Assembly (NCBI GenBank): GCA_023485925.1
Contig: JAMDAJ010000059.1
Location: 1 to 46,394, forward strand
DNA: 46,394 nt
From: Patescibacteria group bacterium
GTDB lineage: Bacteria; Patescibacteriota; Doudnabacteria; UBA920; 2-01-FULL-50-11
Direction of reading: 5' to 3'
Both the position numbers and the translations under genes were made by a program. Numbering within the stretch: the stretch's first letter is position 1; each line of letters opens with the position of its first letter. Positions 4,709 to 26,335 of the stretch are shown piece after piece. A model generated the notes under the pieces. The model ran no database searches. It had not been told where the DNA came from and worked only from the letters and a program-made list of their open reading frames with translations.

Positions 4709-4709
4709 A

Positions 4710-11656: not shown

Positions 11657-11709
11657 ATGACCCGTTCGATTCCGCCCAGGGTCATGGTGAGCGGGGTCGA
11701 ATCCATGAC
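11657..11709. repeat. nested GTCAT-type palindromes
   Basis: atgaccc...gggtcat at 11657-11685, overlapping gtcatgg...ccatgac at 11681-11709. Confidence 0.5.
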
Positions 11710-11720
11710 AATGCAAAATT

Positions 11721-11745
11721 AAAAATAGCCGTTTGCTTAGCAAAC
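11721..11745 (-). terminator. terminator closing the minus-strand operon that ends with the TolB-like gene
   Basis: On the minus strand, gtttgc-taa-gcaaac then ggctattttt. Nested inside a 10-bp inverted repeat, atgcaaaatt/aattttgcat (11711-11760). Confidence 0.55.
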
Positions 11746-11780
11746 TCTTAAATTTTGCATTTTGATTTTTGAATTTTAAA

Positions 11781-12878
11781 TTACTTGAGGTTCACCCGAT
11801 ACAAACTGTTGTCCTTGCCGTCGCGGAAAAAAAGCATCGAATTGCCGGAGTCAATTATTGGATCCCGGATATCGAAAGTCTTATCCTCGCCGCCGAGGTC
11901 AATTCTGGTCTTGGATTTGTCCGAAAGCCGGTAAAGGTACAAATCGTCTGCGGTGACCGAAGAAATCGTCGAATCATTGGCTGAAACCGACCGGGGCTTG
12001 CCGAAATAAAAGCCGTCGCTGGAATTTTCCCACACGACTTTGGAAAGCGCGGTGGGTAAATTAAGATTTTCGAAACTTTGATTTTCGAAATTGTAAAGCC
12101 AAAGTTCGGAAAGCTTCGTATCTGAACTGACGCGGGTGAAAAGCAGTTTGTTAGAGTCGGGAGAAAGCGCCACGTCCACATTCTGACCGCGATCCAGCAG
12201 CTCCGAGAGTTTCCCGCTATTCATATCCACCATTAAAATTTTATTGGTCCCGCCCTCCGACACGGCTTTTTTCAAAAGCGCGAATTTCCCATTGCCGGCA
12301 ACGCTGAGAGCATAAGCGCCGTCCAAATTGGCCACTGTTCGGTAATTTTCAGCTGTGACATTGCCAAGCTTAAGCTCCCAGTCGCCGTCGCCTCGCCGCC
12401 AAACGTAAAGGATCTGCTGACCATTGGGCATCCAGGCGACTTCCTGGATATTTGACGGCAGCGTCACGAAAGCCTGTTGAGCGGCGACGTACGACAAGTA
12501 ACTGCCAATGCCTTCTGGGGCCTTTGTCCAAACGATAAAATTATTGCCCACGCTTGGCCAGTAGACTTTCTGAATGGCCGGATTGGTGCCGGTCAAATTA
12601 AACTTCTGCTCACCGCCGCCTCCCAAGGCGTTCTGATAAAGCTGGCCGTCGCGGCCAAAATACCAAATGGAGGTTTGGTCTAAGGACAATACGGCGGAAA
12701 GCACCGGGGTTTGGGTTACTGAAAGCAACTTCGGCCCGCTTTCGCCGGCCAACCCTGTGTTTGCGGCATTCCCGCCCGGAGTGACGACAGTGTTGCTAGA
12801 ATCCAAAAAAAAGAAATAAACCACGACCCCGATAAGAATGGCGGCCAAAATGACTCCGAATAAAACATAGCGGCGCAT
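11781..12878 (-). CDS. membrane-anchored TolB-like beta-propeller (PD40-type repeats) protein
   Basis: N-terminal TM helix. Repeated LSPDSNKLLF / WMPNGQQILY / YFGRDGQLY type blades. Confidence 0.6.
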   Translation of the reverse strand: MRRYVLFGVILAAILIGVVVYFFFLDSSNTVVTPGGNAANTGLAGESGPKLLSVTQTPVLSAVLSLDQTSIWYFGRDGQLYQNALGGGGEQKFNLTGTNPAIQKVYWPSVGNNFIVWTKAPEGIGSYLSYVAAQQAFVTLPSNIQEVAWMPNGQQILYVWRRGDGDWELKLGNVTAENYRTVANLDGAYALSVAGNGKFALLKKAVSEGGTNKILMVDMNSGKLSELLDRGQNVDVALSPDSNKLLFTRVSSDTKLSELWLYNFENQSFENLNLPTALSKVVWENSSDGFYFGKPRSVSANDSTISSVTADDLYLYRLSDKSKTRIDLGGEDKTFDIRDPIIDSGNSMLFFRDGKDNSLYRVNLK

Positions 12879-12954
12879 GAGAGTTAGTTTAGATTTTTAA
12901 AAATATAAACTGATCCTTTATAATCCGCGCGATATTGCTTTTGTGATTCAATTC

Positions 12955-14088
12955 TCAAAAATTGACATGGATATTGCCGCCTGTGGCATTGGTCGGCATG
13001 CAAGCCGGAACGTATTCATCCAAGAAAGAGCGGACCGCGCCTGAAGTTTGCGCCGCCTGATAAAAAATCTGATAACAGGCGTCATGGCCGGGTAAAAGGT
13101 TAAAATCCACGCAAGTGCCGCTCTGAGACTTTTGCGGAGAATGGCAACTGGAAACGCTTGGTCCGCCGTTAACTTGGATGGAAGAAGAAATTTTTAGCGT
13201 ACACCCCGTGCTCCCGGCCAAACTGTTGAAGGTGTTTATAAAAGCCTGAATTTTAGGCGCTGCGCCTGGCGAAGCCAGACAAACGCCGTTATTGCTTGAG
13301 CAATCGTGTGTCGGCGTATAAGAAGTGATGTTCACACACGAGGAAAGTTCCTGACAACCCGCGGATTGCCCCGTCCCGAATGTTTGATTGCAATTCGTGC
13401 TCGAACCGCCGCTGGGACCCCCGGTGCCCCCCAAAGCGCCCAATTGTTTGCACAAGTCACCTAACCCCCCGATGTTAAAAGTTTTCGCCACCTTCACCGT
13501 CGCCTTGGTGACTATGCCGCCGGACTCGTTGCTGCATATTGCCAAAAAAGCGCCTAAAACAAAACCTATGATAACCAGAATGATCAAGATTCCAAGAATT
13601 ATCGCCGTAACAATCCAGCCCACCGGCGTGGCTTCCGTGGCCGCCGCCGCACCTGCCAAACCCTCTGCCGCCAACTTTCCGCCTTCTACAGCCGCGGCCT
13701 TTCCTAACTGTTTTCCTGCCAGTTTGGTAATTTTCTCCCCTGCTTTAAATGTTTTCCAAACTTTTCGAGCATTTTCCACGGTGCCTCCGCTAAGCTCGCC
13801 GGCACTCTTCAATTCATTGTAAGTCCTCCATATTTTTTGACCTCTCTGTGCACGGTCGTAGTAATCCATTCCTCTTCCAACCGCCCCCTTGTTTCCGCGC
13901 CCCCGAGCCGTCTCGACAGGGCCTTGAGTCACTCCAGCCGCCTCGTCAGGCAAATTATACATCCGCTCCAATTCATCTATTTCCGCCTGCCGATTTTGCT
14001 CCTGCTCCGCACGCCGCTGCCGCCGCAAAGCCGCCTCCTGACGCGCTTCCCTTTCGGCCTTTTCTTTTTCGTAACTTGAAACGGGCAT
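12955..14088 (-). CDS. single-pass membrane protein with charged coiled-coil N-domain and Cys-rich extracytoplasmic C-domain; possible LAS/M15-type zinc peptidase
   Basis: ATG at 14088 (MPVSSYEKEK) preferred over TTG at 14115. TM helix WIVTAIILGILIILVIIGFVLGAFLAI. At least 13 Cys in the C-domain. SCH...GTCVDF...GGNIHVNF resembles the SxHxxGxAxD...HxD pattern, with an insertion. Confidence 0.6.
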   Translation of the reverse strand: MPVSSYEKEKAEREARQEAALRRQRRAEQEQNRQAEIDELERMYNLPDEAAGVTQGPVETARGRGNKGAVGRGMDYYDRAQRGQKIWRTYNELKSAGELSGGTVENARKVWKTFKAGEKITKLAGKQLGKAAAVEGGKLAAEGLAGAAAATEATPVGWIVTAIILGILIILVIIGFVLGAFLAICSNESGGIVTKATVKVAKTFNIGGLGDLCKQLGALGGTGGPSGGSSTNCNQTFGTGQSAGCQELSSCVNITSYTPTHDCSSNNGVCLASPGAAPKIQAFINTFNSLAGSTGCTLKISSSIQVNGGPSVSSCHSPQKSQSGTCVDFNLLPGHDACYQIFYQAAQTSGAVRSFLDEYVPACMPTNATGGNIHVNF

Positions 14089-14134
14089 AACAAAAATGCA
14101 AAACGGGAATATCAAAAATCAAAATGACACCCAA

Positions 14135-14220
14135 TGTCATCCTGACGGAAGTCAGGATCTAGAACATTTGAATAGTAACGAGTAATATCGAATGGATCCT
14201 GAATCAAGTTCAGGATGACA
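14135..14220. repeat. GTCAT-hairpin doublet, second copy of the 1473-1553 element in opposite orientation
   Basis: tgtcatcctgac-ggaa-gtcaggatc at 14135-14159 and ggatcctgaa-tcaa-gttcaggatgaca at 14194-14220. The termini are 11-nt inverted repeats, tgtcatcctga/tcaggatgaca. Confidence 0.75.
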
Positions 14221-14249
14221 AATAAATTCGACATTAATCATCGTTTAGA

Positions 14250-14276
14250 ATAATTAGGTCAATTAGGATAATTAGG
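14250..14276. repeat. three tandem 9-mers overlapping the VirB4 stop codon
   Basis: Plus strand ataattagg tcaattagg ataattagg; minus strand CCTAATTAT CCTAATTGA CCTAATTAT. The stop TAA at 14272-14274 lies in the first minus-strand unit. Confidence 0.7.
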
Positions 14277-16353
14277 AATTCGTTCCCAGTTGCTTCTTCG
14301 CCTCCTGGATTTCCAGCAGCTGCCGCGGGTCAGTGGTGATTATCTGGTCTTCCATATACGAGGCCACCACATGAACGGCCACGTGCTTAAGGCCGGCGAA
14401 AAACAACCCTTCGCCCTGCTGGGCTTCAAGCAGCAAATACCGCTCGCCTTCCGTCAGAAAAAAGACCTTGGATATAAGATCCATGGAAGCCGGAGATTGT
14501 TTAAGCAGAATCTGGATGGAAGAGTTGGTGACGATCGGCTCGCCGTAGGGGCTCTGCAAGAAATCGGTGACATCCTGGGTGATGGTAGTCACCCCCAAAT
14601 AATATTTTCGGGCGCGCTTGGCGATGGAAAACAGGAACCGTCCCGAATCCTCGTGCTGCATCATCCACCAGGCCTCGTCCACTACCAAAATGCGGCGCTT
14701 AAGCTCATTTCTGACCTCGTTCCAGATGTAATTTAAAATCGTGTGGATGGCGATGGGCCGCAGCGCATCTTCCAGATCGCGAACGGAAAACACCACCAGT
14801 TGGTTATTCATCTCAACGTTAGTGCGCTGATTGAACAAGCCGGCAAAAGTCCCGGCAGTGAATTTGGAAAGCCGGGCGGAAAGCGATTCCCCGCCCTCGA
14901 TGCCGCCCAAAATTTCCACCAAATCGTCCATTACCGGCGGCTCTTTGCCGGCAAAACCCAGCTCCGGCGTGATATCCTTTTTAGCGTAAGTCTCCCACAG
15001 CGCCCGGTCCATAATAGCTTCTTCGGTGGGATCGAGCTTGCCCAGCATGACGTTCATCAAACCCATAAGATTCACGATGGCGCTGCGCAAAATATCCTCG
15101 TCAGTCTCCCCTTCCACGACCCGAGGCAAATCGAAAGGGTTCACGCGGAACTCGGAATTGAGGCTAAGGTTCAAAAACGTCCCGCCGACGCTGTCACAGA
15201 GATGTTTGTATTCCAGCTCGGGGTCAATGACGATAACGGAAGTCCCAACCATCAGCGAACGCAAAATTTCCAATTTCACGGTGTAAGACTTGCCAGCCCC
15301 CGACTTGGCGAACACCACGGAATTGGCGTTCTCCATCTGGAACCGGTCAAAAAGTATCAAACTATTATTGTGCATATTGATTCCGTACAATATGCCGTCA
15401 TTGCTGGTGAGGTCGGAGGAAACGAACGGAAAAGTGGAAGATAACGGCTCGGTATTGAGATTGGCAGAAACCGCCAGCTCATCCTCGCCCAAAGGCAAAG
15501 TGGAATTAAAGCCCTGTTTGGACTGCAAAAACGCCTTCTTCACCACGATGAGTTTGGAAGAAAGCAATGTCTCCACGGCGGAAACGGACTTGTCCAGGGC
15601 GTCTTTGGATTTGGCGTACAGCGTAAAATACAGTGAGAATCGGAAATAGTGCTCAGTGCCTTGCATCAGACGGTCGCGCAGTTCTTCCACGTCACGGAAC
15701 GCGGTTTCCAGCATTGGGTCGCGCACGTTGCCTTTTTCCTGCTCCATGGTAATGGAGGATTGGATCTGTCCGACTTTCATCCGCAGCTTTTTGAGGATTT
15801 CGCCGGAATCCAGAGGGTAAATGAACATGGAAATATCCATCGGCAGATCCATATCGATTATGGGGGTCAGCCAGTTGGAAGAAAGGTAGCGTGGATAAGC
15901 GAGAACGAAAAGCGAACGGGCAAAAACCCCGGCGATCTCCAGCTCGTCGGGATTCACCTTCACCGCCGGCGGCGCGATAATGTCTTTAAGGGAAGTTAGG
16001 CCTTCGGCAAAACGCCTCTCCGCCTCCAATAATTCGTGCGCAACGCTCTTTGAGGGCTTGCCAACCAATGGAATTTTCCCTTCGTATCCAGAAAACAAAC
16101 GGCGCGGGGAAAAATTGGCAAAAGGTGAACTGTGCGAAATTTTAGGCGCGGAAGGTTTTGGCGGCGGCACCGGACGCGATTCTGGTTTTACGCTGCTCTC
16201 CGCCGCCGCGGGCGCCGGCGGCTCCTCGGACCGGGGAGGGGCCGGCGAAGCCGGAGAGACCGACTGGCCCATCGCCGGAACGTCCGCAAAAGGATCGTCG
16301 CTTCCTCCGGCAGGGGTATTGGAAAAAATTTTATCGACAGAAAATTTCGACAT
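14272..16353 (-). CDS. virB4: VirB4/TrbE/PrgJ-family type IV secretion ATPase
   Basis: Walker A FAKSGAGKSY and Walker B RILVVDEAWWMM. Upstream N-domain pattern (IAPPAVKVNPDELEIAGVFARSLFVLAYPRYL). Pro-rich disordered N-terminus. Confidence 0.85.
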   Translation of the reverse strand: MSKFSVDKIFSNTPAGGSDDPFADVPAMGQSVSPASPAPPRSEEPPAPAAAESSVKPESRPVPPPKPSAPKISHSSPFANFSPRRLFSGYEGKIPLVGKPSKSVAHELLEAERRFAEGLTSLKDIIAPPAVKVNPDELEIAGVFARSLFVLAYPRYLSSNWLTPIIDMDLPMDISMFIYPLDSGEILKKLRMKVGQIQSSITMEQEKGNVRDPMLETAFRDVEELRDRLMQGTEHYFRFSLYFTLYAKSKDALDKSVSAVETLLSSKLIVVKKAFLQSKQGFNSTLPLGEDELAVSANLNTEPLSSTFPFVSSDLTSNDGILYGINMHNNSLILFDRFQMENANSVVFAKSGAGKSYTVKLEILRSLMVGTSVIVIDPELEYKHLCDSVGGTFLNLSLNSEFRVNPFDLPRVVEGETDEDILRSAIVNLMGLMNVMLGKLDPTEEAIMDRALWETYAKKDITPELGFAGKEPPVMDDLVEILGGIEGGESLSARLSKFTAGTFAGLFNQRTNVEMNNQLVVFSVRDLEDALRPIAIHTILNYIWNEVRNELKRRILVVDEAWWMMQHEDSGRFLFSIAKRARKYYLGVTTITQDVTDFLQSPYGEPIVTNSSIQILLKQSPASMDLISKVFFLTEGERYLLLEAQQGEGLFFAGLKHVAVHVVASYMEDQIITTDPRQLLEIQEAKKQLGTNS

Positions 16354-16363
16354 GGTGTATGTG

Positions 16364-17041
16364 CTAGTTGTTTATCTGCAGATCTTCGACTTTCAAAATT
16401 TGAGTTTCCACATTGGACAAATTATAGGAGTGGAACAAAAGTTCAGTAAGCTCCTGGGAGTTAAGACGCATAATATGCAGACCCATTGAAGAAAGGCTGC
16501 TTTCGATATGCCCCACCCTTTCGTTAAGGACCCGCAACTCCTGCTGGAACTTTTCATGAGAGGAATAGATCTCTTTGCCGGGATTGAAGATGCTCGACAG
16601 TTTTTTTGCGAATCCCTGGGTGGAAACCAGACTTCCGGCGTAAGGCACGATAACGTAAAAGGTCTTACTCATGATATTGCCGAATTCCAACAGCTTCCCC
16701 ACGTACTCTATATACTCTTCCGTCTGAACGCGTAATAATTCGTTGGCCTGCTGCATTTCCTTCTCGCGGAGCTTACGCAAATAATTGCCGATATCCAACC
16801 GCCGGGAACGAACCAAGACCTGAATGGGAAAATCCAAAGCATTGAGGAAAGATTGATAACGGGCCAGGATGGCCTCCTGTTCTTCCGTCGACTTTAACAC
16901 GAAATTGGTGGAAGAAACCGCGACGACAGCGCGAAGTCCCCCGTCAGTGGTGACGATGGTATCGGCTTTTATTTCGGAGATCAATAAAAAACCTTGCGTG
17001 GTAGACGACGTTTTTTTTCCGCGTTGCATCTCAAAGGCCAT
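16364..17041 (-). CDS. 225-aa protein resembling a stand-alone VirB4/PrgJ N-terminal domain
   Basis: TTQGFLLISEIKADTIVTTDGGLRAVVAVSSTNFVLKSTEEQEAILARYQSFLNALDFPIQVLVRSRRLD follows the pattern I recall for N-termini of Gram-positive VirB4 homologues. No Walker motifs. Stop lies 10 nt before the virB4 start. Confidence 0.45.
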   Translation of the reverse strand: MAFEMQRGKKTSSTTQGFLLISEIKADTIVTTDGGLRAVVAVSSTNFVLKSTEEQEAILARYQSFLNALDFPIQVLVRSRRLDIGNYLRKLREKEMQQANELLRVQTEEYIEYVGKLLEFGNIMSKTFYVIVPYAGSLVSTQGFAKKLSSIFNPGKEIYSSHEKFQQELRVLNERVGHIESSLSSMGLHIMRLNSQELTELLFHSYNLSNVETQILKVEDLQINN

Positions 17042-17053
17042 AGCGATTTAAAT

Positions 17054-17081
17054 CCTAAATTCTAAACTCTAAATCCTAAAC
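17054..17081 (-). repeat. 28-nt heptamer-repeat element, copy F1
   Basis: Minus strand GTTTAGG ATTTAGA GTTTAGA ATTTAGG. Ends exactly 12 nt upstream of the ATG of 16364-17041. Identical to 17648-17675. Confidence 0.85.
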
Positions 17082-17143
17082 GAATCTCAAATTCGAAATC
17101 ATAAATCGTAAACGTTTGGAGGTTTGTTAATTTAGACAATTTT

Positions 17144-17168
17144 GAAATTTGTTTAGAATTTCTAATTT
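17144..17168 (+). repeat. inverted partner of the heptamer element, copy R1
   Basis: gaaatttgtttagaatttctaattt. Same as 18074-18105 minus one heptamer. Complementary to F1 over aaattctaaac. Confidence 0.75.
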
Positions 17169-17182
17169 ATGATTTCGAATTT

Positions 17183-17635
17183 TTATTTCAAATGCACATA
17201 CTTCTCCTTCAATAGCTGCTCTTCCTCTTTCGCGTCCTGGTCAAGAATGTAAGTCAACTTATGCAACCGGCTCAATTTTTCCTCCGGACTCAAGTCCGAC
17301 GCCGCGGCTGTCTTGGGAGGCTTTTCTTGCCGTTTTACCTGCGCCAGCCCTTTCTCGCCCTTGCGGAAAACAAAGGAATTGGGTTCAGCAAAAAAACTTA
17401 AGCCAGTGACTATCAGATCGCCGAAGCTCTTGCCGTTATAACTGCCAAAAGCCGCAAAAGCGAATACCCCGACCACCGGCAAGGCAAAAATAATGAACAG
17501 TAAAAAATTGCCCGCGAAGCGGAATACAACCAACACCACGACCCCGCCGGCCAGCAAGATAAAGAACTGCCTTAGGGTCAGCGGCCCGACGATCTTGTCT
17601 TCGACGTCAGTGAATTGGGGAACGGAAAACTGCAT
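17183..17635 (-). CDS. PrgI-family (VirB3-like) type IV secretion membrane protein
   Basis: N-terminal VPQFTDVEDKIVGPLTLRQFFILLAGG signature followed by two TM helices. Confidence 0.75.
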   Translation of the reverse strand: MQFSVPQFTDVEDKIVGPLTLRQFFILLAGGVVVLVVFRFAGNFLLFIIFALPVVGVFAFAAFGSYNGKSFGDLIVTGLSFFAEPNSFVFRKGEKGLAQVKRQEKPPKTAAASDLSPEEKLSRLHKLTYILDQDAKEEEQLLKEKYVHLK

Positions 17636-17647
17636 AATCGTTCAAAA

Positions 17648-17675
17648 CCTAAATTCTAAACTCTAAATCCTAAAC
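17648..17675 (-). repeat. 28-nt heptamer-repeat element, copy F2
   Basis: Identical 28-mer, again ending exactly 12 nt upstream of the ATG (of the PrgI-like gene). Confidence 0.85.
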
Positions 17676-17710
17676 AAATATCAAGGACTAAATCTTTAAA
17701 TCCAAACTAA

Positions 17711-18070
17711 TCATTTCGTCTTTCCCAGAATGGCACCGAAAATTTTCATTAATTCGTTAGTTTCTTGGACCAACGCGTCCCTTTCCGAGGATTCCGACCC
17801 TAGCGGTTCGGTGAGATATAGCCAATAGCGACTCTCCTTCGCTTCTTTCTTGGAAATTTTAACCCGGAGGATAAAGTCTTTTTTACTCAACGACTCATTG
17901 GCCTCGATATAATTGGCGCCAACCGAACTGCCCGAACGGACTAATTGCTTACCGTGCTCAATATTTGTAATGGTCTTGGGGAGCTTGAGAATGTAGCTGT
18001 TCAACCGCCTCGCGAACTTTAGGCAACGATCCTCCAAATCATAAGGTTTAGAATTTGGAGTTTGAACCAT
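17711..18070 (-). CDS. four-helix-bundle protein (23S rRNA intervening-sequence protein / Avd family)
   Basis: KFARRLNSYILKLPK, GKQLVRSGSSVGANYIEANESLSKKDF, KISKKEAKESRYWLYL. Length 119 aa. Confidence 0.8.
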   Translation of the reverse strand: MVQTPNSKPYDLEDRCLKFARRLNSYILKLPKTITNIEHGKQLVRSGSSVGANYIEANESLSKKDFILRVKISKKEAKESRYWLYLTEPLGSESSERDALVQETNELMKIFGAILGKTK

Positions 18071-18073
18071 TTG

Positions 18074-18105
18074 GAAATTTGTTTAGAGTTTAGAATTTCT
18101 GATTT
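18074..18105 (+). repeat. inverted partner of the heptamer element, copy R2
   Basis: gaaatttgtttagagtttagaatttctgattt. Its reverse complement matches F2 over 17 nt (aaattctaaactctaaa), plus 5 more nt across a 7-nt indel. Confidence 0.8.
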
Positions 18106-18187
18106 AGAATTTTTCGTCGAAAACCTATAATATTCGCATCTTTTGTACTATTTCTGTTTCAAGAATTTTCACAAAACTTGTACAAAA

Positions 18188-18216
18188 ATTATACCACACT
18201 TCCCTGCTATAAGCAA
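18188..18216 (-). promoter_or_regulatory. strong sigma-70 promoter for the 4HB-PrgI-VirB4 operon
   Basis: Minus strand TTGCTT, 17-nt spacer, TGgTATAAT (extended -10). Confidence 0.65.
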
Positions 18217-18239
18217 AAAAGGCCTTTACGACCTTTTTG
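18215..18239 (-). terminator. terminator of the upstream (VirB6-like) operon
   Basis: Minus strand aggtc-gtaaa-ggcct followed by tttttt. Abuts the -35 box of the next promoter. Confidence 0.5.
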
Positions 18240-18276
18240 GTTAGAAGACAAAGGTTCCCCTTGTCGGAGGTAAGTT

Positions 18277-19947
18277 TCAAATTTTGACTTCCAGTTCCGA
18301 AATTTCCTTTTTTAGACTAGAAAGCGCCAGAAATTGCTCGCGTGAAAGCACTTCTTTGTGCGCGGCCTTATAATTGCCCACCACCTTTTCAAAGGCGGCT
18401 TTCTGATCCGGAGACGTGTTATCGTTCATTACCGCCACGCCCATATTCATAAATAGTTGATAGAGCGGGCTGCGATAAAAATTTTCTGCCACCTTCGTCA
18501 CGGGCAGCTGATGCTCGTCGGAAAGATGCGAAATCCGCTGTTTGATCTGGGAAAGTTTCTCCGCGAAATAAACGCCGTCGGCGTCGGCAAGTCCGATCTT
18601 TTGCAACTGCTCCGGAGCGCTAATGGAAGCGATATCCAAAACTTGTCGACGGGAAAGATCGATAACGCCCGAGGGCATAACGGATTCGGGACGGATCTGC
18701 GACGGCACGGGCAGATTAGCCTGCAAAGGCGCGGAAGGCGCCCCTCTGGCCGAGAGGGTTGCCCTCTCGGAAACCGGCGGAGCTTGTTTTGGCGCAACGG
18801 ATTTCTCATTTGGTAGAGCCTGCGGAGTTTCGGTTCCGGTACGCATGTTGCCGGTCGTGGTCAAACCTTGGTCAGCGTTAGCTAACGCGTGCGACAGCGA
18901 CATATTGAAAAGTTTGGAGCCGGATACCAAGGTGGCCTTTTGCTCCTCCGGAGTGAGCAATGGTTGAGAGGACTGTCCTCTCCCCAAGAGGACTGTCCTC
19001 TCGGGCGCGGACGGAGCGATGGAGGCCGGCTGGCGTTTGGCCACTTCCGGCTTCAACAAATCCATCTTCGCCCGCGGCTCTGCGGCCGGACCTTGGGAAA
19101 TTATCCGCGGCATGGGCGGAACAGGACGTGCGCTCACGCGTTCCGACGTTATTCTAGGAAAAATCACTGGCCTTGCAGCCGGCAGCTCTGCTGCAACAAC
19201 AGATCTAACGCCGCCCAAGGGCTTATCCGGAACGATCGGACTCGCCGCCGACGTTTTTGGCGTAGGGTTTTTTGGAATTTGAACAGTCGTGGAAGGTGTG
19301 GCAGCGAGCTGATATGAAAACAGTCGGCTATAAATCGTAAGAAAATTCCGCAACTGGTCTTTCACGTCTTCCTGCAAACTTTTCGCCGTTGAATCGGTAT
19401 TGATAAATGTGACTACATCTACCAGTGAAGGTGCAAAACCCCCGGAAACTTTTGCGCCCGAGCGCTGCCGGTATCGGGCTAACCAATTGCCTAAAGTGTC
19501 GCCGAATCCAGTGTTCGCTGTACTCCGGGCAAGCATGCCGGCAAAATTCCGAGCCGTCTTTTGCGCCTCCTCTGGCGGCAAAATGCTCAAAAAACCGTCC
19601 AAACCGCCCCACACGTCGAATCCTTGCTGCAGAGCGAACATAAAATCGCGGTCAAGATATTTTTCCCGACCGGCGTTACCTAAACTGGAAAAGAAAACGG
19701 TTTTCAAACGGACCAGCCAAAAATAAGCGATGTCATAACTGGTTTTCTCAGCATCGCTTGCCGGCCGGGACTGGTCCAACAAATTCTGGAGACTCGCGAT
19801 GAACTTGCCGGCCGGTTCGTCGATACTTTCGATCAAATAATAAGCATATTCCTTTATCCGGTCGATATTTTCACCGCTATACAAAGCCGGCACGGTCAAA
19901 CCCGCGATGAAACTTTCGGCCTTTTTTACGTAATTAGAATACGACAT
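18277..19947 (-). CDS. hypothetical cytoplasmic protein with long Pro/Ala/Ser-rich central linker
   Basis: 556 aa, no TM helix. Helical N- and C-domains separated by about 200 aa of low complexity. Confidence 0.7.
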   Translation of the reverse strand: MSYSNYVKKAESFIAGLTVPALYSGENIDRIKEYAYYLIESIDEPAGKFIASLQNLLDQSRPASDAEKTSYDIAYFWLVRLKTVFFSSLGNAGREKYLDRDFMFALQQGFDVWGGLDGFLSILPPEEAQKTARNFAGMLARSTANTGFGDTLGNWLARYRQRSGAKVSGGFAPSLVDVVTFINTDSTAKSLQEDVKDQLRNFLTIYSRLFSYQLAATPSTTVQIPKNPTPKTSAASPIVPDKPLGGVRSVVAAELPAARPVIFPRITSERVSARPVPPMPRIISQGPAAEPRAKMDLLKPEVAKRQPASIAPSAPERTVLLGRGQSSQPLLTPEEQKATLVSGSKLFNMSLSHALANADQGLTTTGNMRTGTETPQALPNEKSVAPKQAPPVSERATLSARGAPSAPLQANLPVPSQIRPESVMPSGVIDLSRRQVLDIASISAPEQLQKIGLADADGVYFAEKLSQIKQRISHLSDEHQLPVTKVAENFYRSPLYQLFMNMGVAVMNDNTSPDQKAAFEKVVGNYKAAHKEVLSREQFLALSSLKKEISELEVKI

Positions 19948-19979
19948 AGAATAAACTCGAACTTTCCAGCAATCTCATT

Positions 19980-22900
19980 TTAAGGCGTATTAGTTTGATT
20001 GTAGATGGCGCGGGCCAACTCGTTGGTATTGAGTTTTCTCTCAATATCCGTTTCATTCTTTAACCCGCCGATCTTTGCATCCGTAACGGAACTTACTATC
20101 GCGGTCTTGATTTCAACCATCCGCCGACCGACGGAGGCCGCCGGATGGCGGGAGGAATTGATCAAGCCCTGCCGGGCGCCTTTGGCCACTGACTCGACCA
20201 GTTTGTTCAATTCCTGCGGCGGCAGCTTCCTTATAGCTCCCGGATCGGCAACCGAATTTAACTCCTTCCCAAAATCCACTTGCCCAGTTTTCCTTTCAGC
20301 CAATTTTTCAATGTTGCCGCGGGCGATGTTCTGCGCCGTGGTTGTGTTTTTGGCCAGATCCTCGATCGCACTAACCAAGTCGCTAAACTCGGGAATAGAA
20401 CCTGAAGCGCTCTTGCCTTCCAAACGCGTCTTAAGCTCATTTTGCGGCACACTTTCTTTAAGCAGCCCTTCTCTTACCGCATCCAATGCCGAAGCGCTGG
20501 CCGGCTCTGGATGCTCAGCCAGCCCTGACGCTAGCTTTGCGTTCAGCAAAGTCCGTTCCCGACCGGTGTCATCTTTTATCTTAATCCCCTCTCTTAAAGT
20601 CTTAGCTAGCCCGGCCTTGGTTGTATCCAAGCCCAGCATGCGGTTATACAATCCGGCCACGGCCTGAGAGCCCACCGGACTATGATCGAACATGGCTTGC
20701 ATGGCGTTGAAAGAAGCATGATTGATCTCCATTACCCCAGTTCTTATCAGATCTTTGCCGGGAGTGGACGCCATATAATCCTGATCCTCGGTCAGTAATT
20801 TGCCAGCCGTGCGCTGCTGGGCAAAGGTCGGGTTTTCCGCCAAAGCGTTGGAAGTGGCGTCCCACAGCTGGGAATTTATTTCCCCGTCGGTACCAATACC
20901 GCGGATAGCGTGCCAGGCAATAGCAGCCTGAATACGTGACGCGAGCTTGGCCCACTCTCTGGCGGCGAACGTCGCGCCGGTATTGTTATCCCAGACGGCT
21001 TTTCCGTCTTTCACTATGAACTTGCCGGTTTGGCCGTAAGTGCCGTCATCGCGTTTCTTGCTTAATGCCATATATTCGGCATGGTTCGTCTTCTTGCCCA
21101 TGGTCTCGCCTTGCTCAGCGATCATACGCCAGGAAACCTGGTCGTCGCCGAATAAGGCGCGGTAATAAGCCGTGGCCACGCCCATATTTGGGTCGTACTT
21201 GACATGCTTCCCATTTTTATCCGTATAGAACATAAAATCTTCCGCCTGCTGATCCGCTGCATCAGCCGATAACCCCGCCTGTACCATTTGTTTGGCAATT
21301 TCATTCTTCATTTTTTCCAAAAATGGAGTCATGGCTGTCACCACGCCGGCGACGTTTTCTGGAACGCGGCGGTCTAATGTGGAAGAATCGGTCACCTGGT
21401 CATCAAGAAAACCGCTACGCATCGGATTATAAATCGCGTCACCGCGAGCGACCGCCCGTTCTTCATCCGATTGGCCCAAATGCAACGCGCGCGCGCCTTC
21501 TTCCACCTGCTGGTCACGGTTATAATCGACCTTATCCTTCATGGCTTCTTTCACCTCGCGATCCTCGACATCATACATCCTATCCTTACTCACCCGACCA
21601 CGGGTAAAGAGCTGCTCAAGGGCTTGTTCAGCGCCCGCTGCCGCCTTGGCGCGGCGCTCCTCGGTCAAGCGCTCGCCGCGGCTTTTAAGCCCTCGGAAGA
21701 ACGACACTGGATTGGCCAAAGCAAACGCCGCCAGGCGGTCAGGCGTTATATCCCTCCCGTGCCCCAAGATCTTATTGGTTGTAAATTCGTTCCAAGCCCG
21801 GCCGGCCTTGCCTTTTGCCGCGCCCAAAGCATATCCTCCAACCACGCCGGCTCCCACCAGCGGCAGCATGGCGGCTTTTTGGCCCAAATTCGTTAAAGCG
21901 CCGGAGCCGAAAATCGAAAGCTTTTTAGCCACGAGCAGGCCCGCCAGCACGAACGCAATAACTTCCACCTGCTGCAAACCGTTAAGCACAAGCTGGGAGA
22001 ACAAGCCCATTGAGGCGGCGCAGCTGGCCGTGGCATCGGTGGCTTTGAGCGCATCGCACCCGTTGGTGATCTCCCCGAAAAACGGCTTGTTCATCAGTTC
22101 GATGGCGATGCGCAGGAAGAAAAAAAGAATGGGTAAGAACATTCCGTACTTAAGAAAATTCGTCCACCAAGCCCGAGCCAGCCCGGCCGTGGCCGGTATC
22201 ACAAGCAACGCCGGCCAAAACGGTGAAAGTATCAGCAAAATACGCAGGGCCACCGTGGCGATAAGCATATATACCGCCACCGCCGCCATGGCGCCGAATG
22301 CCAAAAACGACAAGCTCAAATTCATCAGCTCGGCGGCAACTACCGGGATCTGGCCGGGATTAGGCACCGCCGAATTCAACGCCAAACCGATAGCCTGCAC
22401 CGTGTCCACGCCGCCCACCGAAACCATATGATAAGCTATCAATTTGTATCCCAGCCAGCCCAGTTGCGAAACCGAAGTGGGGTCCAAGAAGGTAAAACGA
22501 ACAATGTCGAAAATTTTTAAAAACGCCTGAGCAATGACCAAGCTGAAATTTACGAGCAGCGCCATTATGATGAGCTTGCCTAAAAGGCGCTTGTAATTGT
22601 AGGACTGCAACCGCAAAATAGTGGCGACGCCGATGACGATCATTATCAGAATAAAAATCATGTTCACAAAATTGCGGACGATCTGCCAAGCCCCGCAAAT
22701 ATTGCTCAAAAAGCCCGTGCCGCCGGCGGTGCTGCAGGAGCCGACGCCGGTCTGGATTTTGCCGATGGCCACCATCAACGGGATGACCATGGTGAAATAC
22801 AGCAAGAACAGGAAAGTCTGAATGGCCATAAAAAGAGGCGAAAGGATGCTGGTCACGTAGGCTCGGAACGGGTCGTCAGTGCCGCCTCCGTCGGACCCGG

Positions 22901-23336
22901 ACGACGAACCGGTAATTTGCATTTTGCCGTCCACCATTCTGACGTTGATGTATCCGGAAGCGATAGTCGCGCCACTTGTGTCAAAGGCAAAAACCGTAAT
23001 CTTTGCGCCATCGCTGGCTTGCCCGCTGGTAAAAGTGCACGCCCCCGACAATTTCGCCGTGTCCAAAAATGTATTGTTTTGCGCGGTACCGCCACCGCAG
23101 TCAATTCCCATTGCCGGCGGGGTCTTGCTGCCGGTGAATTGGGCGTCAAAAGTCACGGTCTGATTCTGTCCAAATGTACCGGTCACTGTGTTGGTAATGG
23201 TCACGGTGTCGGCGGCCCGCGCGGTCTGCGGCGCGACAAAAAACGCGAACGCCAACGACAAGCCCAAACCGAAAGTCAGGGCAAAAATCGCCGACCGTTC
23301 ACGGGTTATCAATTTTGGATGTTTGAAAAGCATCAA
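19980..23336 (-). CDS. extended VirB6/TrbL-like polytopic membrane protein (1118 aa)
   Basis: Signal peptide, about 130-aa exported domain, about 350-aa multi-TM core, then about 600-aa hydrophilic C-terminal domain. Sits upstream of PrgI/VirB4 as PrgH does. Confidence 0.6.
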   Translation of the reverse strand: MMLFKHPKLITRERSAIFALTFGLGLSLAFAFFVAPQTARAADTVTITNTVTGTFGQNQTVTFDAQFTGSKTPPAMGIDCGGGTAQNNTFLDTAKLSGACTFTSGQASDGAKITVFAFDTSGATIASGYINVRMVDGKMQITGSSSGSDGGGTDDPFRAYVTSILSPLFMAIQTFLFLLYFTMVIPLMVAIGKIQTGVGSCSTAGGTGFLSNICGAWQIVRNFVNMIFILIMIVIGVATILRLQSYNYKRLLGKLIIMALLVNFSLVIAQAFLKIFDIVRFTFLDPTSVSQLGWLGYKLIAYHMVSVGGVDTVQAIGLALNSAVPNPGQIPVVAAELMNLSLSFLAFGAMAAVAVYMLIATVALRILLILSPFWPALLVIPATAGLARAWWTNFLKYGMFLPILFFFLRIAIELMNKPFFGEITNGCDALKATDATASCAASMGLFSQLVLNGLQQVEVIAFVLAGLLVAKKLSIFGSGALTNLGQKAAMLPLVGAGVVGGYALGAAKGKAGRAWNEFTTNKILGHGRDITPDRLAAFALANPVSFFRGLKSRGERLTEERRAKAAAGAEQALEQLFTRGRVSKDRMYDVEDREVKEAMKDKVDYNRDQQVEEGARALHLGQSDEERAVARGDAIYNPMRSGFLDDQVTDSSTLDRRVPENVAGVVTAMTPFLEKMKNEIAKQMVQAGLSADAADQQAEDFMFYTDKNGKHVKYDPNMGVATAYYRALFGDDQVSWRMIAEQGETMGKKTNHAEYMALSKKRDDGTYGQTGKFIVKDGKAVWDNNTGATFAAREWAKLASRIQAAIAWHAIRGIGTDGEINSQLWDATSNALAENPTFAQQRTAGKLLTEDQDYMASTPGKDLIRTGVMEINHASFNAMQAMFDHSPVGSQAVAGLYNRMLGLDTTKAGLAKTLREGIKIKDDTGRERTLLNAKLASGLAEHPEPASASALDAVREGLLKESVPQNELKTRLEGKSASGSIPEFSDLVSAIEDLAKNTTTAQNIARGNIEKLAERKTGQVDFGKELNSVADPGAIRKLPPQELNKLVESVAKGARQGLINSSRHPAASVGRRMVEIKTAIVSSVTDAKIGGLKNETDIERKLNTNELARAIYNQTNTP

Positions 23337-23363
23337 AAAAATGAATAAAGGCTGGCGTGGATT

Positions 23364-24947
23364 TTACTGATTTTGAACAGTAATCGTAACGCTGTCGGTG
23401 GCAGTCTGGCCACCCGAGCCGATGCAGGTAAGCGTGTAAGTATCGTTCCCGTAAACCTGGATAGTGGCATAACCGGACGTTTGATTGTAGCCGCCGGGTG
23501 TAACCGATGCCGATGTGGCGTTCTGACAAGACCAGCTTAAAATCACGCCGTCGCCGGAGTTTGTTACGGTCAGTGGAACAGCGTTAATATCGGCGCTTAA
23601 GCTTAGCGCGCCCGCTCCCCCGCCGCTTCCGGAAGATGAGGGCAAACATTGGCCGCAGGGTCCGGGATTGGGTCCGGAATAAGTTTGGTAGACGCCGCTG
23701 TTATCTTGGCCGGCGTTGCAAGCGGGCACCGCCGGACATTCCTCAACCGCCACGGTGTTCGGGTCGTCACATTGACAGACTTGGGTGGCATTGCCACTCT
23801 CCGCGTTCGTATCGGTCAAGGCGTTGGCGTTCTTATAAGTGGTCTCGCCTAAATTGCCGGAATTCGGCGTTTGACCCAAAGCCGCGGTGTTGCTTCCAAA
23901 AATCCCGCCGGAGAAAAGCCGGAAAAAGGCCCAGGCCGAACCTTCGGTAATAGCCGCATATAGAACGTTGTTGGTCAAATAATCCCGGTTAAGCAGTCTT
24001 TGTACGGACACCTGCACTACCTTGGCAACATAACCGCCGGGGCTTCTGATCTGGCCGGAAGTGTCGCCAAGCGTAAAATTTACGGTTGCGCCGCCTGAAC
24101 CAGGGTATGTCACCTTGCCGGTCTTGTAAAAATCCGACGTGCGCAAAGCGGGGTTGGTAGAAAGCTGCGCCAAGGCGGCGAGGTCGTCTTTGTTGCGGCT
24201 GCTTTTATATCCTTCCGAGTTCGCGATTTCAGAAGCCGCTGACGACTGCGCCTGATTTTTTGTCGCTATCGCGGCGCCCTGATATTTGAAATACAAAGTT
24301 TCCGGGGTCTCCTGGGCGCCCAACAAAGCCAATTGCGGATAAATACCGGGGTCCTGAAACGCGGCGCTGTTGGAACTCCCCAGAGGCGTGGCGTTGACCT
24401 TCGGCAAATTCTTTACGGCCGGCTGCTGGGTGGTGATGGTGGAAAGATCGACGTATACGCGGGAGTAATTCATGCCGCCGCGAAAAACCTCGTCATATCC
24501 CATATCCACGAGCTTGCGGTCGGTGGGATCAAGGTACTTATCAAAAAGAATGCGGTAACGGAACACCACGTCGGAAAGCGAACGGTTATAGCCGTAATAA
24601 TCGGTTATCTGCAATTTTTTGTTCAGTTGACTCCCTATCCACTTGCCCATGGCAATGCCGGCGCCGTAGAGCGTGGCTGTAAAAATATTCTTAAGGACGT
24701 TGCGGGTCCCCCGATTAGGGTCGGCCGCCACCTGGATTGGCACGCAGGAACCGAATAAGCCGGGCCCAATGCCGTTCACGCCGCAATCCAATTCCATTTT
24801 GTCGCCTTCGCCCGAGAAATCAAACGCCCGGGCGGTCGGCGTCGATAGAACAAAAGCGACATTACCCAAAGGCGTAAACGCAACCAGCGCCAATACGAAT
24901 ATAAGCAAAAATTTGTACGCGGTGAGGGTCCGTTTTTCGTAAGCCAT
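23364..24947 (-). CDS. secreted protein with Cys-rich linker and C-terminal Ig-like beta domain
   Basis: Signal peptide ending TARAF. C-terminus PLTVTNSGDGVILSWSCQNATSASVTPGG...YTLTCIGSGGQTATDSVTITV. Confidence 0.7.
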   Translation of the reverse strand: MAYEKRTLTAYKFLLIFVLALVAFTPLGNVAFVLSTPTARAFDFSGEGDKMELDCGVNGIGPGLFGSCVPIQVAADPNRGTRNVLKNIFTATLYGAGIAMGKWIGSQLNKKLQITDYYGYNRSLSDVVFRYRILFDKYLDPTDRKLVDMGYDEVFRGGMNYSRVYVDLSTITTQQPAVKNLPKVNATPLGSSNSAAFQDPGIYPQLALLGAQETPETLYFKYQGAAIATKNQAQSSAASEIANSEGYKSSRNKDDLAALAQLSTNPALRTSDFYKTGKVTYPGSGGATVNFTLGDTSGQIRSPGGYVAKVVQVSVQRLLNRDYLTNNVLYAAITEGSAWAFFRLFSGGIFGSNTAALGQTPNSGNLGETTYKNANALTDTNAESGNATQVCQCDDPNTVAVEECPAVPACNAGQDNSGVYQTYSGPNPGPCGQCLPSSSGSGGGAGALSLSADINAVPLTVTNSGDGVILSWSCQNATSASVTPGGYNQTSGYATIQVYGNDTYTLTCIGSGGQTATDSVTITVQNQ

Positions 24948-25000
24948 ATTCGCGAGGGAATTAAATGCCTTAAGAAACTGCCTGAGAAGTCGCTTTCTTA

Positions 25001-25107
25001 GCGAAATTCCAAATTTTCGAGCGAAAGCGTTGAAGAGGAACGAAGGCGTAATAGCAGCATTACGGCGAGTTCTGATGAAACGCTTGCAGCCGAAAATCTG
25101 GAATTGC
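25001..25107. repeat. long imperfect inverted repeat (about 107 nt hairpin) in an intergenic gap
   Basis: Arms gcgaaattccaaattttcgagcgaaagcgtt and aacgcttgcagccgaaaatctggaattgc pair in three 7-bp blocks. Inner hairpin cgtaat/attacg. Confidence 0.6.
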
Positions 25108-25136
25108 AGCAGAAATGGATCTTTTCAGACAGTTTC

Positions 25137-26078
25137 TTAGAGTCCGGAGCCGGAGAAATCCGCCTCAGTAAAATTCGCGTCCTCTCCGCCGACAATGGAA
25201 ATGATCTTGAGCTGGTGAATTATTTCGCTCCAACCGGAAAGGTCTTCGGAATTTTCCAGCATCGCCAGTTTTTCGTCGGCGATCTTTTTCAAAGCGCCAA
25301 AAAATATCAAAGTATTTTTCTGCGTCTCCACGCTTGATTTCGGCACGCGCAATTCGCGGAGCCGTGCCAAATAACTTGCAAACTTTTCGGAAAGCGCTTT
25401 CGCATCCGACAGAGAATCAGCGCTGAAAGCCTGACCGAACGCGCTATCAATGCCTCCGCTGGAGAATTCGTTGATGATCTTGGAAACAGCCAGCTGGTAT
25501 TCTTGCAAGCTCGCATCGGAATCGGGGACCAGCTTGATATCCGAGTCCGGGATGGTCGGCAGCACCGCCGCCTGGTCGAGTTTCAAAAAGTTGTTCATTT
25601 CCGCCTCGCTGTCCACGCCCTCTGCCGACAATTGATTCTTTACTTCCTCGACAAAATTATCCACCGGCGACGGTTTTGACTGGACGGCGCTTGTTACGGG
25701 ACTGGCGGAATCCGTCGGGTCGGTTCCGGCTGCAACTTCCGCACCGTCGCTTAAGCCGTCGCGGTCGGTATCGGACACCATGGGGTTGGTTCCGAAAAGA
25801 TACTCTTGTTTGTTGGTCAGGCCGTCCTTGTCCGGATCGGCCTCGGCCCCCGCAATGGAAACGCGAGTTATGGTCTCGTCACTGAAATACTGTTGATACC
25901 AGGATATCGGAATAACGGTTCGAGTCAACGCTTGTTTTTTGTCGCTTGCGGGCAGTAAAAAAAACGCCGCGACCAAAATCAAAAGCGCGGCGATGGCCGA
26001 ATAAAAAACGAGCTTCTTTCTGCGTTGCCAAAAATTTTCAGAACTGAAACGACGTTCCAGCACGTCTTGCTTGGACAT
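25137..26078 (-). CDS. membrane-anchored protein with thrombospondin type-3-like calcium-binding repeats
   Basis: N-terminal TM helix. DPDKDGLTNKQEYLFGTNP and DTDRDGLSDGAEVAAGTDP repeats. Confidence 0.7.
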   Translation of the reverse strand: MSKQDVLERRFSSENFWQRRKKLVFYSAIAALLILVAAFFLLPASDKKQALTRTVIPISWYQQYFSDETITRVSIAGAEADPDKDGLTNKQEYLFGTNPMVSDTDRDGLSDGAEVAAGTDPTDSASPVTSAVQSKPSPVDNFVEEVKNQLSAEGVDSEAEMNNFLKLDQAAVLPTIPDSDIKLVPDSDASLQEYQLAVSKIINEFSSGGIDSAFGQAFSADSLSDAKALSEKFASYLARLRELRVPKSSVETQKNTLIFFGALKKIADEKLAMLENSEDLSGWSEIIHQLKIISIVGGEDANFTEADFSGSGL

Positions 26079-26192: not shown

Positions 26193-26281
26193 TAAAAAAC
26201 CTCTGCGCTGGCTCCAGTTTTAAAAGGAATTAGCTTCTCTCTTTTTTTGAATCTCTTTTACCCTGACAAAAAGAACGAAGG

Positions 26282-26310
26282 ATGACAAAAATCCTAAAAA
26301 GTGATATAAT
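26282..26310 (+). promoter_or_regulatory. divergent sigma-70 promoter
   Basis: ATGACA, 17-nt spacer, TGaTATAAT. Confidence 0.55.
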
Positions 26311-26335
26311 TAAGTCAGTAAAAACATCTTGTTCT

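Follow-up and report, generated by a model that had tools for sequence, protein, structure and literature searches.

What does a type IV secretion system (T4SS) do for its owner when it is encoded among housekeeping genes and has no DNA-processing genes beside it? This question is raised by a locus at positions 11781-26078 of the window analyzed here, which is a complete 46,394-bp contig (JAMDAJ010000059.1) of an NCBI metagenome-assembled genome (MAG) of an ultra-small Patescibacteria group bacterium, and to which all coordinates refer. Patescibacteria, which account for a large part of all uncultivated bacteria, live on other cells, and no T4SS had been shown to be essential for its owner before theirs. 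We conclude that the locus is a further example of this system, which was described between 2023 and 2025. The interpretation offered in an earlier note on the same DNA was right and is already published; its remark that the composition and function of such loci are poorly defined is outdated (PMC10633639, PMC12102498, PMC12857230), and a 2025 review lists the Patescibacteria T4SS among the established newcomers (PMC12857230). We consider it probable, though well short of certain, that the locus is a chromosomal, vertically inherited T4SS of the Patescibacteria clade that carries out contact-dependent, non-conjugative translocation between the epibiont and its host cell. The identity alone is held with much higher confidence than this statement as a whole.

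Every sizeable open reading frame (ORF) of the contig was scanned against profile models, using the Pfam gathering score (GA) and the curated NCBIfam cut-offs. Ten credible ORFs, all of them intact and on the minus strand, fill the interval between radA (10264-11622) and rsmA/ksgA (28010-28867), one fewer than the eleven counted in the earlier note. That note named the flanking genes correctly, but a plus-strand gene (26336-26896) and the eleventh minus-strand gene (27162-27956) also intervene before rsmA. Central to the identification is a VirB4 ATPase of 693 aa (14272-16353), in which the Walker A (AKSGAGKS, residues 349-356) and Walker B (ILVVDE, residues 555-560) motifs are both intact. 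This protein passed the CD1110-family model of NCBIfam (NF045971) with 356.4 bits against a cut-off of 325 and matched PF19044, PF12846, PF01935, and PF03135 above GA, while its N-terminal ~100 residues are Pro-rich and poorly conserved. The sole relative with a solved structure was the VirB4 of Thermoanaerobacter (PDB 4AG5, E 2.4e-47), and the closest plasmid VirB4 proteins, which belong to the CD1110 family of Firmicutes and Actinobacteria, were 36% identical. Since strong matches were obtained only to VirB4 models and to the VirB4 structure, with no FtsK- or HerA-like match, the alternative of an FtsK/HerA ATPase that had been raised beforehand was rejected.

The remaining core subunits were recognized with varying ease. 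A 225-aa TrsD-like protein (16364-17041, minus strand) aligned to the N-terminal VirB4 models NF045975 (positions 98-233) and NF045971 (24-104) and to TrsD (NF041427, E 6e-7), all below cut-offs; judging from these alignments, it corresponds to the N-terminal domain of VirB4, split off as a protein of its own. The 150-aa PrgI/VirB3-like protein (17183-17635, minus strand) matched PrgI (PF12666) with 39.3 bits against a GA of 27 and has a hydrophobic hairpin at residues 15-67. The polytopic 1118-aa protein (19980-23336, minus strand) consists of a signal peptide, an outside N-terminal domain, ~6-8 transmembrane (TM) helices between residues 160 and 520, and a hydrophilic C-terminal extension of ~600 aa; its match to TrbL reached 22.1 bits (E 1.5e-4; GA 25.9). 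Six of 27 orthologues in the VirB6 position matched TrbL (best E 1.6e-7) and no other family recurred among them, whereas the VirB6 profile matched no solved VirB6 among PDB sequences. By topology and position, the 1118-aa protein can be described as an extended VirB6/TrbL-like membrane protein.

A scan of species-representative genomes yielded 588 confirmed VirB4 relatives, the best 80 of which were analyzed as loci L001-L080, with synteny assessed by tblastn and phmmer searches of the window proteins against them. Nearly all of these 80 came from Patescibacteria MAGs, at 52-74% identity, with a few carrying other or unreliable organism labels; the closest VirB4 relatives (66-74% identity) were mostly labelled Doudnabacteria. 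The prgI-trsD-virB4 genes were collinear in 60-66 of the 80 loci: the TrsD-like protein has an ORF of its own immediately ahead of virB4 in 66, prgI lies directly upstream of trsD-virB4 in 60, and a VirB6-like gene occupies the same upstream position in 36. The core proteins are 40-74% identical across deep lineages, with their order kept, and radA and recG are downstream neighbours in ~30 loci. Positional orthologues of the fast-evolving 313-, 527-, 556-, and 386-aa proteins were found in the Doudnabacteria-like group, which keeps the full order from the TSP3 protein to the propeller. Thus the ten-gene order, minus a four-helix-bundle (4HB) gene, is a conserved chromosomal arrangement, and the synteny comparison proposed earlier found gene order conserved in both Doudnabacteria-like and ABY1-like genomes. 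According to a recent survey, VirB4 occurs in 2,417 of 3,035 Patescibacteria genomes, nearly all in one clade nested in MPF-FATA (mating-pair formation type FATA), with TrsD, PrgI/VirB3, and VirB6 near virB4 (Quinonero-Coronel et al. 2025, PMC12102498).

Among the ORFs of the 46-kb contig, none gave a profile match to a relaxase, VirD4, TcpA, or integrase domain. No convincing att-like flanking repeats were found either, only short imperfect two-copy repeats inside coding regions that are not collinear. The nearest tRNA gene (7184-7255) lies beyond recG and none abuts the block, and apart from the 4HB cassette the GC content of the locus equals that of the flanks, with no compositional island. 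An ordinary integrative and conjugative element (ICE) on the contig was therefore rejected, as integrase, relaxase, type IV coupling protein (T4CP), att repeats, and a tRNA junction are all missing, GC is as in the flanks, and synteny is conserved; an arrangement shared by many Patescibacteria chromosomes is itself evidence against an ICE, and the flanking relaxase, T4CP, and attachment sites that would have marked one are absent from the contig. The reported lack of a relaxase, coupling protein, and integrase holds for the 46-kb contig, the extent to which T4CP absence can be stated. Together with flanks made up of radA, recG, rsmA, and other core genes, and with a gene order conserved across many Patescibacteria chromosomes, these observations agree with the earlier description of a chromosomal, non-conjugative machine set among housekeeping genes. 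On sequence evidence, the Patescibacteria T4SS appears to be a derivative of the monoderm MPF-FATA machinery whose locus-linked DNA-processing genes were lost or were never present.

Peptidase-fold protein, surface components, and transcription signals

The gene that follows virB4 (12955-14115, minus strand) encodes a 386-aa protein with 13 Cys and one TM helix, which had previously been noted as a Cys-rich membrane protein. Its N-terminus is charged and cytoplasmic, and the TM helix is followed by an extracellular Cys-rich domain of ~150 aa (residues ~235-386) that holds 12 Cys. In profile searches, neither this protein nor the 556- and 527-aa proteins matched any family; no SLT, CHAP, or muramidase domain was detected in it, and Pfam M15 models stayed below threshold for the window domain and for its positional orthologues. 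An AlphaFold2 (AF2) model of the outside domain was obtained with a pLDDT of 89.8, and all of its significant Foldseek matches were Hedgehog N-domains (probability 1.0, TM-score 0.55-0.60), followed weakly by MepA and VanX. Likewise, a profile of the positional orthologues matched Sonic hedgehog (Shh-N, E 0.002) across the zinc-ligand motif S.H..G.AVD. On the basis of the predicted structure and the profile-to-PDB match, the protein is predicted to carry a membrane-anchored Hedgehog/DD-peptidase-fold (LAS zinc-peptidase-like) domain. We consider it the counterpart of SEML1_0007 of Southlakia epibionticum, which is encoded directly after virB4, is listed with a Hedgehog/DD-peptidase fold in a structure-based table, and is essential (PMC10633639).

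In every Doudnabacteria-like relative, the gene after virB4 encodes the same N-terminus, TM helix, conserved Cys pair, and domain with M15-like motifs (S.YR...S.H..G.A.D ... DEY ... H.H.E). H325, D337, and E367 are invariant, H383 aligns with the second His of H-x-H in most orthologues, and H-x6-D is present in two homologues. Database homologues share only the outside domain, which is rare (28 clusters at 50% identity among 1.84 billion representatives), and a precomputed PF18895 match was available for five of 15 of them. In the metagenomic sequences P0001, P0008, P0010, P0011, and P0013, which are homologous to 12958-13413, the domain is fused behind a PF18895 T4SS-pilin-like domain. A hidden Markov model (HMM) built from the pilin-like N-terminal region of these homologues found no match in the window or within 10 kb of virB4 in L001-L012. 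The gene probably starts not at the annotated TTG (14115) but at a Met codon (ATG) at 14088 (MPVSSYEKE...), which agrees with the orthologues and with a close homologue and would give a protein of 377 aa.

Monoderm VirB1-type hydrolases are membrane-anchored, with their enzymatic domains outside (PMC12857230). Because of its fold, its counterpart SEML1_0007, and this shared topology, the 386-aa protein is likely a peptidoglycan-remodelling subunit, that is, an analogue and not a homologue of VirB1/PrgK. Its membrane anchor, outside domain, and position within the cluster fit those of VirB1-like hydrolases, and its enzymatic activity is putative.

Three further proteins appear to be exposed at the surface, two of which were identified as lineage-specific surface components. 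The first is a bitopic 313-aa protein (25137-26078, minus strand) with one TM helix (residues 21-47) and a match to TSP3_bac (PF18884, 43.4 bits against a GA of 25), a bacterial calcium-binding repeat; its orthologues occupy the same locus edge in L004, L005, L010, and L022. The second is a membrane-anchored PD40-type beta-propeller of 365 aa (11781-12878, minus strand; PD40 27.7 bits against a GA of 20.9), with a TM helix, whose gene follows the peptidase gene in 17-19 loci. The propeller itself stands as described earlier, but it is not a TolB orthologue (TIGR02800, 20.7 bits against 343), and no tol or pal genes are present alongside it. The 527-aa protein (23364-24947, minus strand) is fast-evolving, Cys-containing, and signal-anchored. 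Over its N-terminal 200 aa it can be aligned with positional orthologues from L004, L005, L007, and L010, with which it shares the motifs A.AF.G.GD and DPDLR. It had been called a secreted Ig-like protein; an Ig/PKD-like C-terminal domain is only weakly indicated (E 0.008, below GA).

The 556-aa protein (locus tag M1275_03415; 18277-19947, minus strand) differs from these in being cytoplasmic, without a TM helix, and composed of helical N- and C-terminal domains joined by a ~220-aa Pro-rich disordered linker. Only four homologues were found for it, and positional orthologues exist in L004, L006, L011, L042, and L081. Its AF2 model had a pLDDT of 55, and Foldseek returned only non-specific helical-repeat matches (E > 0.1).

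Sequence signals divide the locus into two predicted transcription units. A promoter-like site P1 (26192-26164, minus strand; TTGACT-17-TATAAT with the TG of an extended -10), which agrees with the consensus at 11 of 12 positions, is found in the 150 bp of intergenic DNA ahead of the first gene and is stronger than the second site P2 (18216-18188, minus strand), which would serve the prgI-trsD-virB4 unit and reads TTGCTT-17-TGgTATAAT, exactly as reported before. After the 556-aa gene and ahead of P2, two terminator-like hairpins are predicted at 18216-18265, the second with a U-run (minus strand; -20.7 kcal/mol, z -2.57, with 1 of 200 shuffles folding as well), and a nested terminator-like hairpin at 11705-11766 (minus strand; -17 kcal/mol, z -2.06) ends the locus ahead of radA. 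Terminators had been proposed at both places, between the units and after the last gene. TGnTATAAT recurs 44-54 nt upstream of prgI in L006, L009, L011, and L063, all of which have no insert there, and in L002 the equivalent motif lies upstream of a 4HB cassette. Since the motif precedes prgI in relatives that have no insertion, the two-unit layout of the earlier note gains comparative support, in addition to the predicted signals themselves.

Candidate roles of the machine

In S. epibionticum, the T4SS cluster SEML1_0004-0019 was found by transposon sequencing (Tn-seq) to be essential for epibiotic growth on the host (Wang et al. 2023, Cell, PMC10633639). The same study described a Gram-positive-like composition in which neither a relaxase nor a coupling protein could be recognised, and suggested that the system exports proteins or serves some other non-conjugative purpose (PMC10633639). 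By analogy with such relatives and with T4SS biology in general, assembly and transport in the window system may be pictured as follows. The extended VirB6-like protein and PrgI/VirB3 would form a membrane translocon, on which the VirB4 motor (the TrsD-like N-domain protein and the 693-aa ATPase) would dock to power assembly and transport. The Hedgehog/DD-peptidase-fold protein would open or bind the cell wall locally, as PrgK/VirB1 does, and the TSP3, 527-aa, and PD40 propeller proteins would form a lineage-specific outer portion in contact with the host cell. Transcription would start at P1 (26192) and again at P2 (18216), before prgI. The most likely role would be the contact-dependent transfer, in one direction or the other, of proteins or other macromolecules between epibiont and host bacterium, and not conjugation.

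Several points weigh against this reading. On the contig, no substrate, effector, or pilin gene was identified: the small ORFs scanned had no Pfam match to the PF18895 pilin, no VirB2-type pilin was found, and no protein had a sequence-family match to VirB8/NTF2-like proteins. Regarding the pilin, the PF18895 array is not universal in the Patescibacteria T4SS clade (PMC12102498). As the scan covered the 46-kb contig, the gene for a T4CP may lie in another part of the genome. The TrbL match of the VirB6-like protein is sub-threshold (22.1 bits against a GA of 25.9), and the subfamily of the 386-aa protein has N-I-H, with Asn for the first His of H-x-H, which makes catalysis uncertain. Furthermore, the placement of this VirB4 in the Patescibacteria clade relies on match identities (52-74%, against 36% for plasmid proteins), and the promoters and terminators are sequence predictions.

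Among the alternatives, surface-structure assembly is unlikely but retains some weight: VirB4 would power the extrusion of subunits into a pilus or adhesive fibre for host attachment, with no translocated cargo. Three anchored surface proteins in the operon would suit such a structure, as would the essential VirB2-like pilin array beside the Saccharibacteria T4SS and the PF18895 T4SS-pilin N-termini that homologues of the Cys-rich peptidase domain carry elsewhere. However, the contig encodes no PF18895-type pilin, nor is there one in the Doudnabacteria-like relatives at up to 10 kb from virB4, and the surface proteins have membrane anchors and not pilin-like features.

The neighbourhood of the locus brings up a further alternative, which we consider distinctly unlikely, namely a DNA-uptake machine that works inward, like Helicobacter ComB or archaeal Ced, and feeds host DNA to ComF-like, RecG, and RadA proteins. 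The co-directional radA lies directly downstream, with recG convergent, in ~30 of the 80 loci and in two classes, and a comF-like phosphoribosyltransferase (PRTase) is encoded on the contig. In ABY1, loci of this clade adjoin comF, recG, and radA, with ksgA also frequent near virB4, and functional coordination has been suggested for the comF/recG/radA neighbourhood (PMC12102498). Yet this conserved neighbourhood may be phylogenetic inertia, and a terminator-like hairpin separates the locus from radA. The VirB4 does match CedB weakly (47.6 bits), but far under the cut-off of 700 and compared with 356 bits for the CD1110 conjugative family. Moreover, competence in S. epibionticum needs type IV pili and ComEC, and the loss of ComEC is non-lethal whereas the T4SS is essential (PMC12857230). 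A bolder version, in which the T4SS imports host DNA or macromolecules and is coupled to the flanking ComF-like, RecG, and RadA proteins, while hairpin cassettes resembling rRNA intervening sequences (IVS), with or without a 4HB gene, specifically colonise the prgI-trsD-virB4 spacers, are processed at the RNA level, and shape expression, strikes us as quite unlikely. If true, such an import T4SS would be a bacterial counterpart of the archaeal Ced system.

Conjugation after all, through a T4CP and an unrecognised relaxase elsewhere in the genome that together move chromosomal or plasmid DNA, is very unlikely. Most Patescibacteria genomes encode VirD4-like T4CP homologues, as a rule at a great distance from virB4 (PMC12102498), and 46 kb of this genome were scanned. 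On the other hand, relaxases occur in only 103 of 3,035 Patescibacteria genomes (PMC12102498) and the T4CP is not essential in S. epibionticum; in addition, 99% of the VirB4 proteins of the clade have their closest relative in the same class (PMC12102498), which fits vertical descent, and the chromosomal context is conserved. That the locus is a decaying, non-functional remnant of an integrated conjugative element, as the missing DNA-processing genes and the selfish-looking cassettes between genes might hint, is highly improbable, given ten intact ORFs and intact ATPase motifs, core proteins 40-74% identical in the same order across deep lineages, the lack of att repeats, integrase, and a tRNA junction, a GC content as in the flanks, and an orthologous system that is essential in S. 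epibionticum. Non-conjugative translocation between epibiont and host thus continues to be the role that we favour.

Inserted cassettes and neighbouring genes

The 119-aa 4HB protein (17711-18070, minus strand; TIGR02436/23S_rRNA_IVP, 71.8 bits against a cut-off of 24) had been listed as a member of the second operon. Its absence from most relatives indicates instead a sporadic insertion that is not an operon member by descent. The gene is part of an IVS-like cassette (17644-18112, minus strand) in the 5' leader of prgI, together with a 39-nt A/T-rich inverted repeat whose arms (17644-17682 and 18074-18112) are made of short tandem units. These arms pair around the 4HB ORF in the minimum-energy RNA fold and in the centroid fold alike, and the cassette has a GC content of 0.43, compared with ~0.51 around it. 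A cargo-less copy of the arms lies on the other side of prgI (17040-17186, minus strand), where it forms one ~130-nt hairpin in the prgI-trsD spacer. Specifically, this 142-nt spacer consists of two arms joined by a 17-nt loop, its direct repeats D1 and D2 show 83% identity to the cassette arms, and its fold (-32 kcal/mol, z -4.28) was equalled by none of 200 shuffles; in 35 of 55 relatives, the same spacer measures at most 26 nt. The contig contains exactly two occurrences of the 28-mer GTTTAGGATTTAGAGTTTAGAATTTAGG, and these lie on opposite sides of prgI.

A sensitive HMM search revealed 20 4HB genes in the 80 loci, all within T4SS clusters, although these copies may not all have arisen independently. 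Fourteen are located no more than 3 kb upstream of virB4, in differing spacers (before prgI, prgI-trsD, or trsD-virB4), and three just upstream of virB6, whereas none is found in the housekeeping flanks, which make up about half of the DNA. Some loci contain up to three 4HB genes; examples are L002:7758-8192, L005:9528-9923, L068:3846-4241, 5033-5398, and 7336-7746, and L042:3227-3586 and 4448-4831. An A/T-rich inverted repeat composed of short tandem units flanks every copy; its sequence varies between copies while its symmetry is kept, and in 15 of 21 copies these flanking repeats beat every shuffle. As the gene is present in a minority of loci, in differing slots, and always with inverted repeats of its own, a role as a T4SS subunit was rejected. 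A diversity-generating retroelement context for this Avd-like 4HB gene was likewise discarded, since no reverse transcriptase is encoded on the contig. The 4HB protein family was first found in rRNA intervening sequences, and the cassette resembles a 23S rRNA IVS set in an mRNA leader. The family is also reported in rRNA insertions of CPR (candidate phyla radiation) bacteria (PMC11270868). The concentration of hairpin/4HB cassettes in T4SS operons is the only part of the locus that may be undescribed.

Other small ORFs have been inserted in the slot before prgI in related loci (L001:1-370, L008:8350-8680, L005:7977-8342, L053:4947-5321, and L009-L011). They include a second, more distant 4HB type, and several have short flanking repeats of their own. 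The slot has the appearance of a hot spot for insertions. The virB4-peptidase spacer (14089-14271) contains three tandem CCTAATT-type units and two small hairpins, one of them a 13-pair terminator-like stem at 14146-14118, and may hold another degenerate repeat element.

Upstream of the locus, the divergent gene at 26336-26896 (plus strand) encodes a secreted protein of ~186 aa with five Cys and no family match. It has a predicted promoter-like site at 26282-26310 and a homologue at the T4SS locus edge in L063; it occupies the position of the S. epibionticum pilin array, yet its product is not pilin-like. A 98-aa minus-strand ORF (26230-26526), which overlaps the plus-strand ORF 26282-26896, was judged spurious by composition. 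The gene at 27162-27956 (minus strand) encodes a 264-aa secreted protein with no family match. It is internally duplicated (DNA repeat 27382-27431/27748-27797), with a recurring GYTFD motif, and is followed downstream by a strong terminator-like hairpin at 27012-26983.

Elsewhere on the contig, the flanks encode the ComF-like PRTase (1-693), RecG (7215-9341), RadA (10264-11622), and RsmA, together with an Rpf-like G5/DPBB protein, an M23/LysM peptidase, RecO, IleRS, ArgRS, SmpB, tmRNA, and an ABC transporter. A gene-poor stretch of 920 bp (9342-10263) separates recG from radA, with no Rfam match and none by tblastx against the fetched loci of the relatives. A 207-aa ORF in this gap (9476-10099) was judged spurious by composition, a 119-aa ORF with a GTG start (9669-10028) being the more plausible gene; a promoter-like site TTGACA...GATTAAAAT lies near 9573 and a terminator-like hairpin near 10075-10100. 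Finally, a 186-aa protein with a PaaX central/Cas2-like domain is encoded at 41195-41755 (minus strand), and neither a CRISPR array nor another cas gene was seen on the contig beside it.

Comparison with known systems

The predicted peptidase domain shares its fold, the S-x-H-x(n)-G-x-x-x-D motif, and a C-terminal His with the LAS/Hedgehog-DD-peptidases (Peptidase M15, VanX, MepA, and the Hedgehog N-domain). It differs from the LAS zinc peptidases in its 12 Cys, in N-I-H instead of H-x-H, in its rarity, and in having no Pfam M15 match at threshold.

As regards the secretion system as a whole, the order VirB6-VirB3-VirB4-hydrolase had been likened to PrgH-I-J-K, and indeed VirB6, PrgI, (TrsD), VirB4, and a predicted wall hydrolase were found. 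This is the order of prgH (VirB6)-prgI (VirB3)-prgJ (VirB4)-prgK (wall hydrolase) on Enterococcus pCF10, the MPF-FATA prototype, in which the hydrolase is also membrane-anchored with an intracellular N-terminus and enzymatic domains outside (PMC12857230). Unlike the window, pCF10 encodes the relaxase PcfG, the T4CP PcfC, the VirB8-like PrgL and PrgD, and the adhesin PrgB. In PrgK, LytM, muramidase, and CHAP domains take the place of the Hedgehog/DD-peptidase fold predicted here, and the plasmid-borne pCF10 VirB4 is one polypeptide whereas the chromosomal one of the window is split. A separate TrsD homologous to the VirB4 N-terminus is found in the Trs system of Staphylococcus pGO1, as in the window, and the VirB4 of Clostridioides CTn2 belongs to the CD1110 family, the model of which the window VirB4 passes. 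Both pGO1 and CTn2 are conjugative, however, and carry a relaxase and a T4CP, and the window protein is ~36% identical to the best plasmid VirB4.

Closer still are the ABY1-type loci of the Patescibacteria VirB4 clade, which have TrsD, PrgI/VirB3, and VirB6 near virB4, no relaxase, and comF/recG/radA/ksgA neighbours, as in the window, whose closest relatives are Doudnabacteria-like. Neither the Hedgehog/DD-peptidase protein nor the propeller, the TSP3 protein, or the 4HB cassettes appear in the main text of PMC12102498. The cluster SEML1_0004-0019 of S. epibionticum ML1 has the same one-strand order of VirB6 (~1,100 aa), a large helical protein, PrgI, a TrsD-like protein, VirB4, and a Hedgehog/DD-peptidase, and it is likewise chromosomal with no relaxase or coupling protein recognised within it. 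The architecture of SEML1_0013 matches that of the 1118-aa protein, and the 556-aa protein is the positional counterpart of SEML1_0011. On the one hand, S. epibionticum has six PF18895 pilins in a divergent array, an NTF2-like (VirB8-like) protein, and a lysozyme/cysteine-protease protein, none of which is present in the window, and its peptidase protein has 1,113 aa, as against 386 aa in the window. On the other hand, the window adds the TSP3, 527-aa, and PD40-propeller surface proteins, and it adjoins radA/recG where the S. epibionticum locus adjoins dnaN/recF. The locus opens no new question; the core common to both helps to define the minimal conserved machine. Seen in this way, the locus is a compact, pilin-less Doudnabacteria-like version that keeps the VirB6, PrgI, TrsD, VirB4, and Hedgehog/DD-peptidase core of Saccharibacteria.

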